A stretch of DNA of 64,000 nt from Pseudomonadota bacterium (GCA_046051185.1 JBJOOT010000002.1:252-64251); one strand, 5' to 3'. Counted from the first letter of the stretch, positions 55,691-62,828 are shown. Numbers and translations are program-made. Notes: generated by a model from the sequence alone, not told the origin.

Positions 55691-57076
55691 ATGTTTGAAA
55701 ATTTAAGTGATCGTCTTTCGAAAACGGTAAAAAAATTACGTGGGCAAGCACGGTTAACCGATGAAAATATAAAAGATGCCTTGCGTGATGTGCGCATGGC
55801 TTTGTTGGAAGCCGATGTGGCTCTGCCAGTGGTGCGTGATTTTATTAATCGCATCCGTGAGCGTGCGGTTGGGCAAGAAGTTTTAGAAAGTTTAACTCCC
55901 GGTCAAGCTTTGATTAAAGTCGTTCATGAAGAACTGATTGAAATCATGGGGCAGGCTAATACCGGCTTAAATTTGAATACTCAACCGCCTGCAGTGATTT
56001 TAATGGCGGGTTTGCAAGGGGCAGGGAAGACTACAACTGTCGGTAAACTGACGCGCTTCTTAAAAGAAAAAAGTAAAAAGACCGTGATGGTCGCAAGTTG
56101 TGACATTTATCGTCCTGCTGCCATTAAACAATTAGAAACTATTGCGCAGCAAACGGAAGCGATCTTTTTTCCTAGTGAGCCTAATCAAAAACCGTCTGAG
56201 ATCGCTTTAGCAGCACTCGCGCAAGCTAAGCGCCAGTATATGGATGTGCTGATTATTGATACCGCCGGACGGCTGCATATTGATGCTGAAATGATGGATG
56301 AAATCAGTCAGCTGCATAAATTGTTGAATCCGGTTGAAACCTTATTCGTCGTTGATAGCATGACAGGCCAAGATGCTGCCAACACGGCAAAAGCCTTTGG
56401 TGATGCTTTGCCTTTAACAGGGGTTGTACTCACTAAAACGGATGGGGATGCTCGTGGTGGGGCGGCTTTATCGGTACGCCATATCACCGGCAAGCCGATT
56501 AAATTCATGGGTGTGGGCGAAAAACTCGATGCACTAGAACCTTTCCATCCTGATCGTATGGCTTCGCGTATTTTAGGGATGGGAGATGTGCTCAGTTTGA
56601 TTGAGCAAGCTCAAACCAAAGTCGACCATGAGAAAGCGCAAAAGCTTGCCCGTAAGCTGAATAAAGGCAAAGGTTTTGATTTTGAAGATCTGCGCGATCA
56701 AATGAATCAAATGTTAAAAATGGGAGGCATGAGTAGTTTGCTGGATAAATTACCCGGAATGGGGGCTATGCCCGCCCATATCAAAGATCAGGCTAATGAC
56801 AAAGAAATTCGCCGCATGATTGCAATTATTAACTCGATGACTCTTGAAGAGCGCCGTAATCCTGAGGTCATTAAATCTTCACGTAAGCGTCGGATTGCAG
56901 CTGGTTGTGGTTTACAAGTACAAGATGTTAATCGTCTGCTCAAGCAACAGCAGCAGATGAGTAAGGCTATGAAGCAGTTTTCAAAAGGGGGGATGCGTAA
57001 GCTGATGCAAACCATGAAAGGTAAGTTGCCAACAGGTGGAGGCTTTCCTCCGATGGGGGGAGGATTTCCGGGGTAA
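55691..57076 (+). CDS. ffh: Signal recognition particle protein Ffh
   Basis: MFENLSDRL, GLQGAGKTT, DTAGR, DGDARGGAALS, Met-rich M domain. Confidence 0.98.
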   Translation: MFENLSDRLSKTVKKLRGQARLTDENIKDALRDVRMALLEADVALPVVRDFINRIRERAVGQEVLESLTPGQALIKVVHEELIEIMGQANTGLNLNTQPPAVILMAGLQGAGKTTTVGKLTRFLKEKSKKTVMVASCDIYRPAAIKQLETIAQQTEAIFFPSEPNQKPSEIALAALAQAKRQYMDVLIIDTAGRLHIDAEMMDEISQLHKLLNPVETLFVVDSMTGQDAANTAKAFGDALPLTGVVLTKTDGDARGGAALSVRHITGKPIKFMGVGEKLDALEPFHPDRMASRILGMGDVLSLIEQAQTKVDHEKAQKLARKLNKGKGFDFEDLRDQMNQMLKMGGMSSLLDKLPGMGAMPAHIKDQANDKEIRRMIAIINSMTLEERRNPEVIKSSRKRRIAAGCGLQVQDVNRLLKQQQQMSKAMKQFSKGGMRKLMQTMKGKLPTGGGFPPMGGGFPG

Positions 57077-57114
57077 AAATTTGTGTTTTCCATGGAAATT
57101 CATGGCTTGAACTG

Positions 57115-57143
57115 TTTACCTGCTGGATACTGAGCGGTATGAT
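57115..57143 (+). promoter_or_regulatory. Putative sigma70 promoter of lipoprotein 1
   Basis: TTTACC-17 bp-TATGAT, followed directly by an inverted repeat (57143-57169). Confidence 0.4.
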
Positions 57144-57326
57144 TTGGTTGTGCGAAAGTTACAACTAAATTCTTGGGTTTGTTGGCTTTTAGCAACATTT
57201 AGGGCTGAATGTTGGGCATATTCATACAAACATTCTGCTGAGCCATTACGTCGATCAATGATTAGAAGGTGGGTTCACGTCTAGTCGTTGCTGCTTTACA
57301 CTTAACAACGAAAGAGATTAAAGGCC

Positions 57327-57869
57327 ATGAAAATCAAGACTCCGTATACTTTAGCGGCGATCTTTGCAGTTAGTATGTTTGCTTCTGGTTGTAGTCAAAT
57401 GGCTGCACAACAAGCTGCACCTGCTCCTGAGGCTAAGCCTAGCGAGCCAGTAACTGTTGTGGATTGCAGCAAATGTAAGAAACCTGCTCCGGCGCCTGTA
57501 GGTGGTGCACATACGCATCCAGCGATTCCGGGTTGCACCGATTCTACCACTCATACACATCCGTTTACGAATGCTAACCATAAGCATGCGTATAGCTGCA
57601 AAGGTGGAGCGAAGAAAAAGCCTTTACCACCTATGAAAACAAAACCTGCTAAACCAGTGGTGGATAAGTGGGCGCATACCCATCCTGCAATTCCAGGTTG
57701 TACCGATTCTATTACCCATACCCATCCTTATAACAATGCGAACCATAGCCATCATTACAGCTGCAAAGGTGGTAAGATTGATGTTGTAGTACCACCAGTA
57801 AAGGCGAAGGGCAATTATAAAGGCCCAGTGCAAATTGATGCTGGCGTGATGAAAACTTACAAAAAGTAA
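57327..57869 (+). CDS. Small Pro-rich lipoprotein 1 (DCSKC, two His/Cys repeats, conserved C-terminal motif)
   Basis: Lipobox FASG-C22; repeats at aa 61-93 and 116-148; ends VPPVKAKGNYKGPVQIDAGVMKTYKK. Confidence 0.85.
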   Translation: MKIKTPYTLAAIFAVSMFASGCSQMAAQQAAPAPEAKPSEPVTVVDCSKCKKPAPAPVGGAHTHPAIPGCTDSTTHTHPFTNANHKHAYSCKGGAKKKPLPPMKTKPAKPVVDKWAHTHPAIPGCTDSITHTHPYNNANHSHHYSCKGGKIDVVVPPVKAKGNYKGPVQIDAGVMKTYKK

Positions 57870-57930
57870 TGAGGAAGGTGTTTTTTGAGTTGCAGTTTAA
57901 GGCTGTGATTCAATAAAATCGACTCAAACA

Positions 57931-57962
57931 GCCCGATCTCGTAAGAAATCGGGCGTTTTTTA
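57931..57962 (+). terminator. Intrinsic terminator after lipoprotein 1
   Basis: gcccgatctc-gtaa-gaaatcgggc followed by gtttttt. Confidence 0.8.
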
Positions 57963-58078
57963 TTAGTAATTATTTTTTCTTATAAAGCGGTTAAATTTGA
58001 TATTGTTGTAGATAATCAGTTACTGTTGCGTTTTTGCCTCTCAACCGTAGTTGTTCTTCTCGTATAAGCATAGAAGTC

Positions 58079-59317
58079 ATGGATAAAATTAAAGCGTTAT
58101 TACTACTAGCGGTCTGGATCTGTTTAGCACCTTTAAGTTCAGTCTATGCGGCTGTTTGGAGTACAGAGTCTCAATGGGACGAGTCTTGGGAAAATCGTTA
58201 TCGCCAGTGGGTGGTTCAAAACTGGAAGGATGATATCTTCATGAACCCAGCTAAGCCGATATATTATAAGTTTGAAAATGATTGTGCTGATGCAACCTAC
58301 ATGATGCGTTTGATCTTCTCATTTGAGCATCGTTTGCCCTTTGCAGTGAATAATCAGCAAAGCCCGGGCAAAGTTATTAGTAATGAGATGAGTACTTGGG
58401 ATAACTTGCCTGAACCTCAGCGAGTTCGTCGCTTTATGGATTATGTCGCAGATATGACCAGTACTAAATCATTAAGACAAGACACTTATCCTGTTGCACT
58501 GAATGATATTAAGGCCGGTGATGTTTATGTAGCGCCCGGTGTACACTCTTATCAAATCGTTGAAGTAACTGAGACAGGGATTGCCGAAGTAATGGCTTCT
58601 ACTACGCCAAAGACTTCACGCTTTTTATTGCGCACGCCTTCCTTCCCCTTTTATGTACCAGAAGATAAGACCTTTGCTGATGGCTATCGTCGCTTTAAGC
58701 AACCCCAAAATATTCGTCAACCTGCTAGTGCACAGCCGGGGTATAGTGAAGAACAATTCCTATTAGCAGCTGATCTGAAATATGATTATGTAGCCTTTAC
58801 CGATATTATTTCTAAGAAGCTAGGCAAACGTGCAGAGCGTCCTGATGAAAAAACTACCCGTTTATTGTTAGCACTTTGCATGTCGGCCAATGATCGTAGC
58901 GTTTATGTTTATGATGCTTTATGGCATTTACAAGAAATTCGTAAAACCGGTCGTCAATGTATGAATGCTAAAGAATATGATGATCATTCTACGCCTGGCC
59001 GTGATAAGCGCTTAGGTATGTTCTTTAGTTCTATTCGTCATCATTTAGATCGGATTGGACGTTTTGATCCGCAATCACAACCTGCGCGTTGGGCAAAAGC
59101 GGTGTTTTCGATTGATGAGCCACCTGCAGGCGAAATGAAGCATTTGAATGATTTTTGTATGGTGCAAATGACCTTAGGCGAAGAACTCTATATGAGTTTG
59201 CGAGAATTGCGTAAAAATTTAGAGGGTGGCTATTTAGTATCCGATCCTCATGCACCTTTACAATATCGTTGGGGTATCGTAAAGACACCTTATCAAGCCA
59301 CTTGCCCTACTTATTGA
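58079..59317 (+). CDS. Secreted protein of unknown function with papain/NlpC-P60-like Cys...His signature; likely start MDKIK
   Basis: Signal peptide ending VYA-A; NDCAD, IKAGDVY, GVHSY in the order expected for NlpC/P60-like folds. Confidence 0.6.
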   Translation: MDKIKALLLLAVWICLAPLSSVYAAVWSTESQWDESWENRYRQWVVQNWKDDIFMNPAKPIYYKFENDCADATYMMRLIFSFEHRLPFAVNNQQSPGKVISNEMSTWDNLPEPQRVRRFMDYVADMTSTKSLRQDTYPVALNDIKAGDVYVAPGVHSYQIVEVTETGIAEVMASTTPKTSRFLLRTPSFPFYVPEDKTFADGYRRFKQPQNIRQPASAQPGYSEEQFLLAADLKYDYVAFTDIISKKLGKRAERPDEKTTRLLLALCMSANDRSVYVYDALWHLQEIRKTGRQCMNAKEYDDHSTPGRDKRLGMFFSSIRHHLDRIGRFDPQSQPARWAKAVFSIDEPPAGEMKHLNDFCMVQMTLGEELYMSLRELRKNLEGGYLVSDPHAPLQYRWGIVKTPYQATCPTY

Positions 59318-59432
59318 TCATTTGGGCCAGTTGTTGTAAAAAAGTCAGGGTAATTGTTTTATCTGACCAACAATTTTGAATATACTAAGAGAACCTTGTT
59401 CCCTAATTAACGTTATATAGAGACCGAAGACT

Positions 59433-59810
59433 ATGAAGATGAAAGCTCAACTCTCACTCGCTGCAGTCATTATGGCTGGTTTGTTAGCATCTGGCTGTAG
59501 CCAAATGAGTGCTCAACAAGTAGTAGAGCCACCACCTGCACCTGCTCCTGATAAAGTAGTATTGGATTGCAGTAAATGTGGTCCTGCACCTGTTGTTGTG
59601 AAGCCACGTCCAGTTGTAAAACCACGTCCAGTTGTGCGCCCACGCCCAGTTGTAAAACCACGTCCACAACCACCTGTTGTGGTTAGACCGCAACCACGTC
59701 CTCCAGTCGTTGTTGTTCCACCGATTAAAGTACCACCTGTCAAGGCTAAAGGTACTTATCGTGGTAAGATCCAAATTGATCAAGGCGTGATGAAGCAATA
59801 TCAACAGTAA
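59433..59810 (+). CDS. Small Pro/Arg/Val-rich lipoprotein 2
   Basis: Lipobox LASG-C22; DCSKC; (VV[KR]PRP)x4; ends VPPVKAKGTYRGKIQIDQGVMKQYQQ. Confidence 0.85.
   Translation: MKMKAQLSLAAVIMAGLLASGCSQMSAQQVVEPPPAPAPDKVVLDCSKCGPAPVVVKPRPVVKPRPVVRPRPVVKPRPQPPVVVRPQPRPPVVVVPPIKVPPVKAKGTYRGKIQIDQGVMKQYQQ
59595..59666 (+). repeat. 18-bp coding tandem repeat x4 (VV[KR]PRP)
   Basis: gttgtgaagccacgtcca / gttgtaaaaccacgtcca / gttgtgcgcccacgccca / gttgtaaaaccacgtcca. Confidence 0.9.
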
Positions 59811-59858
59811 TCAAGTTTGTGGTTAAGCGCTTGTAGCTAAATCACAACAAAACTGTTA

Positions 59859-59895
59859 AGCCCTTTACTTTGCAAAGAGTAAGGGGCTCTTTTTA
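59859..59895 (+). terminator. Intrinsic terminator after lipoprotein 2
   Basis: agccctttact...agtaaggggct followed by cttttt. Confidence 0.75.
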
Positions 59896-60100
59896 TTTTT
59901 AAGCTTTAAGCACAGGGAAGCTAGCTAGAACAAGGCTTTAGCAGGGTTTGTCTGGATAATGCTCAGTATCAATACTAAATGATAAAAATCTAAAAAATGT
60001 CGTAAAAAAAACTCAAAAGATAAGTTTACAACCCGCAACTCTAAAAACTTTGACTATACTCGAGAGTGCGTTCCCTTAAACAACGAAAGAGACCACTATT

Positions 60101-60712
60101 ATGAAGATGAAAACCCAACTTTCTCTGGCTAGCATTTTCTTGGCAGGTTTAATAACTTCTGGCTGTAGTCAAATGATGGGTGCTCAGCAAGTCGCTCAAG
60201 CTGCTCCTGCGCCTACACCTGCACCGGGTAAAGTTATTACAATTACTGATTGCAGTAAATGTCCTCCACGCCCACGTCCAAGTGGTGGTGGCAAAAAACC
60301 AAGTGGCGGTAAAAAACCAAGTGGTGGTATGGGCGGTCGGCACTCTCATCCAGCGATTCCTGGGTGTACAAATTCCATAACTCATACTCATCCTTATACG
60401 AATTCACGTCATACGCATAAGTATAGTTGCAAAGGACGTAAAGCTACTCAGCGTCCAATCCAACGCCCTGTTCAAAGACCAGTGGTTGCTAATCGGTGGG
60501 CGCATACACATCCAGCGATTCCGGGTTGTACTAATTCGATAACACATACTCATCCATACAATAATCCGAATCACTCACATCACTACAGCTGCAGAGGGGG
60601 TCAACGCCCAGATCAGCCACAACAAATTATCGTTCCGCCTATCAAAGCAAAAGGTAATTTCAAAGGCCCGATCCAAATTGACCAAGGTACTTTGAAACCT
60701 TATCAGCAATAA
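60101..60712 (+). CDS. Small Pro-rich lipoprotein 3 (DCSKC, two His/Cys repeats, conserved C-terminal motif)
   Basis: Lipobox ITSG-C22; repeats at aa 81-112 and 135-166; ends VPPIKAKGNFKGPIQIDQGTLKPYQQ. Confidence 0.85.
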   Translation: MKMKTQLSLASIFLAGLITSGCSQMMGAQQVAQAAPAPTPAPGKVITITDCSKCPPRPRPSGGGKKPSGGKKPSGGMGGRHSHPAIPGCTNSITHTHPYTNSRHTHKYSCKGRKATQRPIQRPVQRPVVANRWAHTHPAIPGCTNSITHTHPYNNPNHSHHYSCRGGQRPDQPQQIIVPPIKAKGNFKGPIQIDQGTLKPYQQ

Positions 60713-60757
60713 GTTTTGAGAGGGTTTGCTAAGTCAGTATAAAACTAGCAAGCTGTC

Positions 60758-60789
60758 AGACGTCCATCTTAATAGCATGGACGTCTTTG
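60758..60789 (+). terminator. Hairpin/terminator after lipoprotein 3
   Basis: agacgtccat...atggacgtct followed by ttg. Confidence 0.65.
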
Positions 60790-60942
60790 CCGTTTATCTA
60801 GTCGTCATTTCGCAATTGCCTAAAATTTTATTGGTTAAGCTGTCATTAGGGTGGGTCTGAGCATAGTAAGACTGTCTGCAATGGGCTTTAAATACTCATC
60901 GTATTTTTAATAACAATAAGTTTGAAATAGAGGCAAACAATA

Positions 60943-61260
60943 ATGAAAATTAATAATCGGCATGTAGCAATGGCTATTTTGATTGCGGGCTTGGCCGCAG
61001 CAGGCTGTAGCCAACAACAAGCAGCGCCGCCAGTTGAAACTGTTCCAGAGCCAGTTGTTGAAGTTCCTCAACCAGAACCTGTGCCTGTGATTGAAGAGCC
61101 AGCACCTCCTCCAGTCGTACAACCTGTACCACGTCCACAACCACGTCCTGTGCGTCCTATACAGCGTCCACCTGTTAAAGTACCTCCTGTTAAAGCTAAA
61201 GGTACTTATCGCGGTGCAGTACAAATTGATCGTGGTGCTATGCAGCAGTATCAATACTAA
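60943..61260 (+). CDS. Small Pro-rich lipoprotein 4
   Basis: RBS gagg; lipobox AAAG-C22; acidic EP/VP stretch then basic RP stretch; ends VPPVKAKGTYRGAVQIDRGAMQQYQY. Confidence 0.85.
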   Translation: MKINNRHVAMAILIAGLAAAGCSQQQAAPPVETVPEPVVEVPQPEPVPVIEEPAPPPVVQPVPRPQPRPVRPIQRPPVKVPPVKAKGTYRGAVQIDRGAMQQYQY

Positions 61261-61266
61261 TCAGTG

Positions 61267-61301
61267 GGCATGGTTAGGCTGACTGTCTAGCCATGCCTTC
61301 T
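61267..61301 (+). terminator. Hairpin/terminator after lipoprotein 4
   Basis: ggcatggttagg...tctagccatgcc followed by ttct. Confidence 0.65.
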
Positions 61302-61477
61302 AAAGATAATTAAAGTATAACCGTTTGAATTTTCAGAGTTTTGTTTTATTAAACCCCTAGCATTAAAAAGTTAATGTGGTTGACGCTAGTATTTCCTAGA
61401 TATTTATTATAAAACTACATGCGCACCGGCTGGGGAAGTGCGTTTCTTATAGACTATTTATTCCTTTGGGTGGAGTT

Positions 61478-62410
61478 ATGGCGAGCTCTTTTATTGATAA
61501 AGATTTAAAAAGAAAGTTTAGTTTGTTGGTCTACGCGAGCACTTTGATGGTAATGGCCAATTTGACAGGTTGCTCCACGAATACAGTAGATACCAGCGTC
61601 GAACCGGCCAGTCCGCAAAAATTAGCAACGAATGAGCAAAAAACATCAATTAAAATTATTCAAAGAAATAATGCTCAAAATAATGTGCAGCGCGGTAAAG
61701 ATAAACATCAGTTAGAATATGAGCAAAAACAACGTTGGTATCATCAACAATGGGAATTGACTCAGCAGATTAATCAACAAAGGCAAAGAGCTCAAGCTCA
61801 AGCCGCTTGGCAAGTACAACGTTCTCAGCGTGTTGTGAATGCTGATTATTCTGAGCGTCTTGCACAAGCAGCCATAGATCGCTTGCGCTATCGGGTTAAT
61901 TACAATGGCGCTTATATTCCGATTGCTTATCCCAATGGCGATGTCCCATCGAATATTGGGGTTTGTACCGATACAGTGATCCGTTCTTATCGGCGCTTAG
62001 GTGTCGATTTGCAGCGCTTAGTACATGAAGATATTTCGCGTGCTTTTTATTCTTATCCAAATCTTCCCAAATGGGGTTTGCAAGGGCCGGATACCAATAT
62101 TGATCATCGACGTGTCCATAATTTAAAAGTCTTCTTTACTCGTCATGGTCAGCGTTTACCCGTAACAGGTAATCCAAGTGATTATCGTCCGGGCGATTTG
62201 GTGACATGGAGCTTAGGCGGTGATCAAGAGCATATTGGTATTGTCGTTGATCAACGCTCAGTAGTTGACCCACGCCGTTTTATGATTGTGCATAATATTG
62301 GCGAAGGGGAGAAAATGGAGGATATTCTCTTTAAGATGCCAATTACAGGGCATTATCGCTATTTCCCCGGTTCACGTCGCCCACAGCTGACTTACGCACA
62401 ACAGTATTAA
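61478..62410 (+). CDS. DUF1287 (YijF-like) lipoprotein with Gln-rich N-terminal extension
   Basis: GGAG RBS before ATG 61478; lipobox LTG-C; YPNGDVP..GVCTD, DTNIDHRRV.NL, PGDLV, HIGIV, HNIG. Confidence 0.82.
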   Translation: MASSFIDKDLKRKFSLLVYASTLMVMANLTGCSTNTVDTSVEPASPQKLATNEQKTSIKIIQRNNAQNNVQRGKDKHQLEYEQKQRWYHQQWELTQQINQQRQRAQAQAAWQVQRSQRVVNADYSERLAQAAIDRLRYRVNYNGAYIPIAYPNGDVPSNIGVCTDTVIRSYRRLGVDLQRLVHEDISRAFYSYPNLPKWGLQGPDTNIDHRRVHNLKVFFTRHGQRLPVTGNPSDYRPGDLVTWSLGGDQEHIGIVVDQRSVVDPRRFMIVHNIGEGEKMEDILFKMPITGHYRYFPGSRRPQLTYAQQY

Positions 62411-62484
62411 GTGTCTTAATGGCTTTTTAGTTAAACCTCAAGCAAGCTTGGGGTTTAGTGATCGGTTTATTTGTCAATACCCTC

Positions 62485-62512
62485 TTCACATTTCTCAAAA
62501 AAACCGTACAAT
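62485..62512 (+). promoter_or_regulatory. Putative rpsP operon promoter
   Basis: TTCACA-16 bp-TACAAT followed by GC-rich discriminator tgcgcg. Confidence 0.55.
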
Positions 62513-62576
62513 TGCGCGTTTACTTTTGGCATAGCTTTGCCAAGGGTTATTTGAATTTAACTAAGGTTTTGGATTT

Positions 62577-62828
62577 ATGGTCAATATTCGTCTGGCTCGT
62601 GGTGGTTCTAAAAAGAATCCATTCTATAGCATCGTAGTCACTGATAAGCGCAAGCCGCGTGACAGTGGTTATATTGAGCGTGTCGGCTTCTTCAACCCAG
62701 TCGCTCGTGGTCAAGAAATCCGCTTACATCTTGAGCAAGAGCGCGTGCAATATTGGTTATCTAAAGGTGCTCAACCCAGTGACCGTGTTGCAAAGTTATT
62801 GAGCGAGTCTGCTAAAGCAGCTGCTTAA
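62577..62828 (+). CDS. rpsP: 30S ribosomal protein S16
   Basis: [34 protein letters not shown]. Confidence 0.98.

Follow-up and report, generated by a model that had tools for sequence, protein, structure and literature searches.

What do the genes lodged between ffh and rpsP contribute to the cell in a 64,000-nucleotide stretch of DNA from a Pseudomonadota bacterium of the Thiotrichaceae (GCA_046051185.1 JBJOOT010000002.1:252-64251; this whole stretch is called the window here)? The interval holds six co-oriented open reading frames (ORFs) on the + strand, which code for four small lipoproteins (LP1-LP4), a secreted protein (P2) and a further lipoprotein of the DUF1287 family (P6). A first-pass annotation, made from the sequence, read all six as one surface system in which the small lipoproteins are structural subunits and two papain-like enzymes process, cross-link or anchor them. 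The conserved unit is a lipoprotein together with P2 and not the six genes, and the C-terminal tail of the lipoproteins is traceable by homology to a known peptidoglycan-binding domain. There is about an even chance, in our estimate, that the lipoproteins tether the outer membrane to the wall non-covalently, or space the two, and that dedicated wall hydrolases service them; together they would be a Thiotrichaceae-specific envelope module.

The ORFs, signal peptides and lipoboxes of the six exported genes are as the annotation had described them. The interval and its flanks are laid out as follows, with positions counted from the first letter of the window.

55691-57076: ffh, with SRP54 domains; upstream flank.
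57327-57869, + strand: LP1, a 180-residue lipoprotein with a CxxC motif, two His6Cys2 units and a C-terminal KAKG tail (ORF and alignments).
57926-57961, + strand: terminator-like hairpin and U-run 3' of LP1 (fold energy -15.8 kcal/mol, z -3.84).
58079-59317, + strand: P2, a secreted protein of 412 residues; its N-terminal domain is of NlpC/P60-like Cys-His type, its C-terminal one helical, with four conserved Cys.
59433-59810, + strand: LP2, a 125-residue lipoprotein with a CxxC motif, a Pro-rich linker and the tail, and no His unit.
59859-59888, + strand: terminator-like hairpin with a 13-bp stem, 3' of LP2.
60101-60712, + strand: LP3, a 203-residue lipoprotein with a CxxC motif, two His6Cys2 units and the tail.
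60943-61260, + strand: LP4, a 105-residue lipoprotein with a Pro-rich linker and the tail only.
61466-62410, + strand: P6, a DUF1287 lipoprotein with lipobox LTGC, a Gln-rich stalk and a papain-like domain with C167/H256/H276 (Pfam, 215 bits); an ATG at 61478 is a possible alternative start.
62577-62828: rpsP, followed by rimM; downstream flank.

Which of these genes belong together was judged from P2 neighbourhoods in 61 Thiotrichaceae genomes of eight genera (sets of 25 and 36 genomes), in which the ORFs were typed; the genera are coded g1, the window's own, and g2-g7 and g277. A co-oriented lipoprotein bearing the tail stands directly upstream of P2 in every one of the 61 (25/25 and 36/36). 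P2 itself was found in 105 of 107 Thiotrichaceae genomes, including all 71 of high quality, and in only two genomes outside the family among 300 sampled across the class; the lipoprotein family occurs in 23/24 Thiotrichaceae genomes and in 0/16 other families. Among the genomes searched the module is therefore found in Thiotrichaceae only, and its description as lineage-specific stands. In g1, g2 and g4 the pair is flanked by ffh and rpsP, and in representatives of other genera by atpC and glmU (g5, g7), metG and lptD (g3) or dapB and htpG (g6). Because the adjacency is kept despite these differing surroundings, functional coupling explains it better than inherited synteny. In g5 and g7, whose pair lies elsewhere, ffh adjoins rpsP with no cluster in between, which points to insertion or relocation of the cluster there in the lineage of the window, as had been proposed.

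The second enzyme follows a different pattern. DUF1287 adjoins P2 in g1, g2 and g4 (wherever the contig extends far enough) and in one g6 genome, and is unlinked to P2 in g3, g5, g7 and g277. The expectation that both enzymes would accompany the lipoproteins in related genomes is thus borne out for P2 and fails for DUF1287 in four genera, and with it the notion of a six-gene module. The g6 genome in question (G375, locus L092) is the sole one outside the g1/g2/g4 clade with DUF1287 after P2, and there the lipoprotein tails are of the longer type described below; this arrangement suggests that the link may predate, or be independent of, the move to ffh-rpsP. The g1/g2/g4 clade is monophyletic on the P2 tree (topology alone), and only within it does the lipoprotein copy number reach two to four.

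The likely field of action of the pair is best approached through the tail. When aligned, LP1-LP4 all begin with M-K-x-K, carry a hydrophobic core and a lipobox that ends in GCSQ, and have in common the C-terminal motif P-x-[VI]-KAKG-x-[YF]-x-G-x-x-Q-I-D-x-G-x-x-x-x-Y, in keeping with the motif sharing first noticed. In g3, g5, g6 and g7, and in g277 by motif, the lipoproteins end in a conserved 41-residue tail with the core LKAKGYYKGPIDG, then T-R-x-A-L-x-x-F-M. These tails, called PG-type here, score 27-36.7 bits against PG_binding_1 (PF01471, cut-off 23 bits) in g3, g5, g6 and g7, covering profile positions 3-41 of 57, that is, the first two helices. A profile of 25 of them matches the solved peptidoglycan-binding domains of SleB (6tci, E 3.8e-8) and SltB3 (5ao8, E 5.9e-5). 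When 30 short tails were compared with the PG-type tails by hhalign, the probability was 95.4% (E 1.8e-8) over 13 columns, the KAKG-x-Y-K-G-P-I core. Intermediate forms occur in g4 and g2, and on the P2 tree the short-tail genera are one clade nested among the PG-tail genera. These profile comparisons show the window tail to be, by homology, a 22-26 residue remnant of a PG_binding_1 domain, and the series from a recognisable domain to a remnant of ~22 residues is an example of a short "orphan" motif that can be traced to a known domain.

P2, the other half of the pair, starts at the ATG at 58079 and not at the TTG upstream at 58034 (residue numbers below are counted from 58082, so that those of the true protein are one higher), and its Sec-type signal peptide ends in VYA, before AV. 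Its AlphaFold2 (AF2) model has a predicted local distance difference test score (pLDDT) of 95.4. Sequence searches of the PDB with P2 and P6 gave no matches, and a Foldseek search of the PDB with P2 gave nothing at E<=0.001; the fold became apparent only in a wide VIA-align search, where all matches fell within residues 30-210 and the best was MagC (7bk8; Z 8.2, 141 residues, root-mean-square deviation 3.6), followed by 2evr (Z 7.2), 3h41 (Z 7.0) and over 20 other chains of NlpC/P60 or CHAP type (Z 5.7-6.9). A set of 63 sequences at 25-78% identity keeps four residues without exception: D67, C68, G146 and H155. In the model C68 opens helix 68-82 and H155, after a GD motif, opens strand 155-162, and the predicted structure shows an N-terminal domain of NlpC/P60 fold with a papain-like Cys/His arrangement; residues 250-400 are modelled as a helical bundle with the four conserved Cys.

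P2 has no NLPC_P60 (PF00877) match in Pfam. Its likeness to DUF4846 (PF16138), a family classed as NlpC/P60-like and predicted to be wall-modifying, with a "GD" motif (PMC10318531), is a weak match near GD…His: 23.7 bits over 50 of 239 profile positions, below the 37-bit cut-off, with an Atlas TM-score of 0.50 over residues 35-206. Judged by sequence, P2 is instead a member of a separate, unnamed family of ~410 residues that has no Pfam family and comprises 775 clusters at E<=1e-3. Its named relatives are in Thiolinea, Thiofilum and Thiothrix, and its relatives in the Protein Atlas are mostly in Bdellovibrionota; among the Atlas relatives are fusions with canonical NLPC_P60 domains. A second P2 lineage, 42-48% identical, follows murJ, the lipid II flippase gene, and a DUF945 gene at three loci and has no lipoprotein there (L027:1196-5380, L028:3928-6722, L059:830-5260). 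The paralogues beside murJ and the NLPC_P60 fusions point to the cell wall as the place where P2 acts. In a metagenomic protein of 655 residues (P0122) a P2 homologue is joined to a caspase domain (Peptidase_C14, 133 bits); this homologue has DYESA in place of DCADA and VSFQ in place of VHSY, and with both the catalytic Cys and the His replaced, its P2 module looks inactive.

P6 is a clear member of DUF1287 (PF06940; 215 bits against a cut-off of 25 bits, profile positions 2-163 of 163), and C167, H256, H276 and the lipobox are invariant in 23 cluster orthologues. The family has been assigned to the amidases of the NlpC/P60 group, has a Cys-His-His triad and is of unknown function (PMC10318531). 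The triad is intact in P6, and the cluster copy differs from the family in being a lipoprotein with a Gln-rich stalk of ~90 residues; a second DUF1287 paralogue in the same genome is unlinked and 50% identical to P6. With this triad in P6 and the fold and the invariant Cys and His of P2, the two enzymes can both be called papain-like, as the first-pass annotation had it. A comparison of their two families by hhalign gave an insignificant probability of 0.5%, with only the GD…His region aligned.

The remaining parts of the lipoproteins suggest how tail and enzyme could meet. The lipobox pattern [LVI][ASTVI][GAS]C is present in LP1-LP4 as (S/A)GC followed by SQ and in P6 as LTGC, and a lipobox was found in 181 of 191 members of the lipoprotein family. 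Since Ser follows the lipidated Cys, LP1-LP4 are presumably anchored in the outer membrane. In the AF2 model of LP1 (mean pLDDT 60) the His units lie in beta-hairpins, residues 172-179 are helical and the rest is disordered, and this model together with the composition suggests that the lipoproteins cross the periplasm on disordered Pro-rich linkers. The linker of LP2 (59577-59696) consists of 18-nt tandem repeats coding for PRPVVK-like hexapeptides; linker lengths differ among species, and the repeats may drive this variation. A D-C-S-K-C (CxxC) motif lies ~25 residues past the lipidated Cys in LP1, LP2 and LP3 (57462-57476, 59565-59579 and 60248-60262); it is kept in g1 and g4 lipoproteins and absent from the basal-genus lipoproteins inspected. 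A comparison with TonB yielded only sub-threshold matches to the polyproline region, attributable to polyproline composition, and no TonB C-terminal domain.

In the proposed mechanism the lipoproteins, held by their lipid in the outer membrane, would span the periplasm on the Pro-rich linkers and touch the peptidoglycan with the C-terminal tail. The His6Cys2 hairpins carried by two of the four would bind a divalent metal and be locked by a disulfide. P2 would probably cut or remodel stem peptides where the tethers engage the wall, and in the window lineage the DUF1287 lipoprotein would probably play the same role, peptidoglycan being the putative substrate of both. Of the structural roles listed by the first-pass annotation (sheath, holdfast, fibre or outer-membrane-to-wall tether), the last fits best because the tail descends from PG_binding_1.

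Each part of such a device resembles something known. Like Lpp and Pal, the lipoproteins are small and possibly abundant, with a presumed outer-membrane anchor and a C-terminal end that would engage peptidoglycan; unlike them, they have no Lpp coiled coil, OmpA-like domain or conserved C-terminal Lys, and they combine a Pro-rich, disordered linker with a fragment or remnant of PG_binding_1 as the wall contact and with optional His6Cys2 units. P2 recalls MagC and the MepS-NlpI pair in its NlpC/P60 fold, with Cys at a helix N-terminus and then GD…His, and in its genetic pairing with a lipoprotein. It differs in having no NLPC_P60 Pfam match and an extra helical domain of 200 residues, and its partner, unlike NlpI, is not a tetratricopeptide repeat protein.

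Several observations weigh against a tether serviced by wall hydrolases. The tails of the sister genera pass the Pfam cut-off, yet even this ancestral type has no third helix of PG_binding_1, and the window tails keep only ~13 core residues and a short helix; LP1-LP4 have no Pfam match to PG_binding_1 at E<=1, and the short tail may no longer bind the wall or may have acquired another target. In the strand of P2 after H155 only G166 is invariant, with no invariant His, Asn, Gln, Glu or Asp as a third triad residue, and MagC (DUF1175), the best structural match, is described as an inactive peptidoglycan binder (PMC10318531), whereas P2 retains Cys and His. Relatives of P2 in other phyla have no such lipoprotein partner in the three contexts inspected. 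Metal binding by the His unit is read from a sequence pattern, the LP1 model being of low confidence. A complex prediction with P2 residues 24-411 and LP1 residues 52-180 scored 0.43, 0.00 and 0.00, which is evidence neither way.

The strict pairing could also mean that the lipoprotein upstream of P2 docks the enzyme at the wall, or else stimulates or inhibits it in the manner of NlpI with MepS or LpoB with PBP1B, the extra paralogues being regulator variants. One lipoprotein always stands immediately upstream of P2, and a long disordered linker with a small terminal module resembles Lpo-type regulators; moreover, P2 paralogues and distant homologues occur without the lipoprotein, which would make it an add-on to the enzyme. 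The expression layout fits this less well. The window stretch is present in six metatranscriptomic runs, and in four of these, from four studies, RNA contigs span all six genes; contigs from two studies stop at 57930 and 57933, inside the terminator-like hairpin of LP1. With such hairpins after LP1 and LP2 and intergenic gaps of 115-290 bp, the cluster looks like several transcription units, so that LP1 and LP2 would be parted from the genes downstream. Contigs of LP1, LP2 and LP3 have a several-fold to thirty-fold higher word depth than those of ffh, P2 and P6; word depth of contigs is a poor measure of expression, and abundance of the lipoproteins is therefore no more than weakly hinted at, but such an excess over P2 RNA would suit bulk structural proteins better than a 1:1 regulator. 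Clusters also hold two to four lipoprotein genes, some of them a minimal linker plus tail. A regulatory role is regarded as unlikely, though it ranks next after the tether.

A covalent tether was considered as well, in which P2, as an acyl-enzyme transferase of NlpC/P60 type, or DUF1287 links the lipoproteins to the wall through the invariant Lys of KAKG, while a second enzyme sets them free. In function such a system would correspond to Lpp with its L,D-transpeptidases and DpaA. K-x-K-G is invariant in 41/41 aligned His-type lipoproteins and in both tail types, at positions outside the SleB match, and the adjacency to P2 is strict. No Lpp (PF04728) match above the cut-off was found in the window's genome, which is 86% complete, and the NlpC/P60 superfamily includes acyltransferases such as LRAT (PMC10318531). 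Against this, LP1-LP4 end in K, Q or Y and the family as a whole in K, Q, Y or N, which excludes a linkage through a C-terminal Lys in the manner of Lpp; the genome has one YkuD L,D-transpeptidase that could do such jobs; and the ancestral tail is a non-covalent binding domain. A covalent link is thus held to be quite improbable. Its boldest form, in which P2 acyl-enzyme chemistry would join the KAKG Lys to stem peptides, DUF1287 would release it as an amidase and the His6Cys2 units would set or sense the stiffness of the tether in a metal-dependent way, is a longer shot still. If true, it would add a third chemistry for covalent tethering to the two in which L,D-transpeptidases act on Lpp or on outer-membrane barrels.

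The His6Cys2 unit raises a further alternative, a periplasmic metal buffer in which the lipoproteins that carry it serve chiefly to store Zn, Cu or Ni at the wall or to scavenge them there, beside enzymes of unrelated function. The unit is 31 residues long, with three HxH motifs and two Cys, and occurs in two copies each in LP1 and LP3. Among 301 units counted in 191 proteins the six His of the three HxH motifs are invariant, and the spacing HxH-11-HxH-6-HxHxY is kept in 234; the consensus reads W-x-HTHPAIPGCT-x-S-x-THTHP, then N-x-N-H-x-H-x-YSC. The two Cys hold the same positions in 295 units; where they shift, in a small number of g6 and g7 units, they do so jointly, a pattern expected of a disulfide, by which the unit would be held. 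The pattern suggests that the unit most likely binds a divalent metal. AF2 models the units of LP1 as a beta-hairpin at pLDDT 66-79. No match was found in Pfam or NCBIfam, and the Protein Atlas gave no usable relative by features and structural rows of TM <=0.33. About 140 homologous clusters, essentially all from Thiotrichaceae, pair the unit with a PG_binding_1 tail or an SH3_3 domain. In the window's own genome (L004:1183-1734, contig C32:6044-6595) a secreted protein of 183 residues carries SH3_3 (45.7 bits) and then one His6Cys2 unit, without the KAKG tail, and similar proteins occur in other Thiotrichaceae. Sequence comparison shows the unit to be a new mini-domain found with wall-binding modules; it is sharply defined and testable for metal binding.

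The density of invariant His and the presence of one to four units per protein, varying by species, would suit a buffer. However, half of the window paralogues have no His unit and yet keep anchor, linker and tail, and the g4 lipoprotein adjoining P2 likewise has none. The linkage to P2 in differing neighbourhoods argues against coincidence, and no metal transporter or regulator gene was seen in the loci inspected. A role chiefly in metal storage is very unlikely as an alternative to the tether. Polymerising sheath, holdfast or fibre subunits cross-linked by both enzymes, also on the first-pass list, are the least probable of all: the several paralogues and the hint of high RNA representation would allow them, but the lipoproteins are lipid-anchored, predicted to be mostly disordered and equipped with the remnant of a wall-binding domain, the pair with P2 is present in every genus examined, and no secretion or assembly genes were seen in the loci inspected.

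At the DNA level the cluster is rich in repeats. The tail corresponds to a 97-nt repeat in 4 copies of 63-79% identity and the His unit to a 106-nt repeat in 4 copies, and tail, His unit and signal peptide each form a repeat family of three or four copies. A 26-nt leader ending AACGAAAGAGA lies just 5' of the start codons of LP1 and LP3 (57292-57317 and 60067-60092, 81% identity) and is probably a duplicated ribosome-binding region. A scan of 56900-62700 against Rfam returned a single match at chance level. The ORF survey agrees with the first-pass annotation that no integrase or transposase lies between ffh and rpsP. The G+C content of the cluster (0.36-0.47) is like that of its flanks. A mobile element was considered and rejected, since mobility genes are absent, G+C is native and the arrangement is fixed throughout one genus.

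DUF1287 is the only component that bears a family name, and the parts are modified versions of known ones, namely a lipoprotein tether, a peptidoglycan-binding domain and NlpC/P60 hydrolases. Literature searches for Thiothrix, lipoprotein and peptidoglycan-binding combined, and for the lipoprotein-P2 system, found no paper. The locus offers a first functional lead from gene context both for DUF1287 and for the P2 family, whose 775 clusters of ~410-residue proteins have an NlpC/P60-like domain. The Thiotrichaceae (Thiothrix, Thiolinea and Thiofilum) are the classic filaments behind the bulking of activated sludge and rank as major sulfur oxidisers, and to our knowledge their envelope architecture is almost unstudied. 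In these bacteria without Lpp, the lipoprotein and P2 are a family-wide core gene pair that probably links the outer membrane and the wall.

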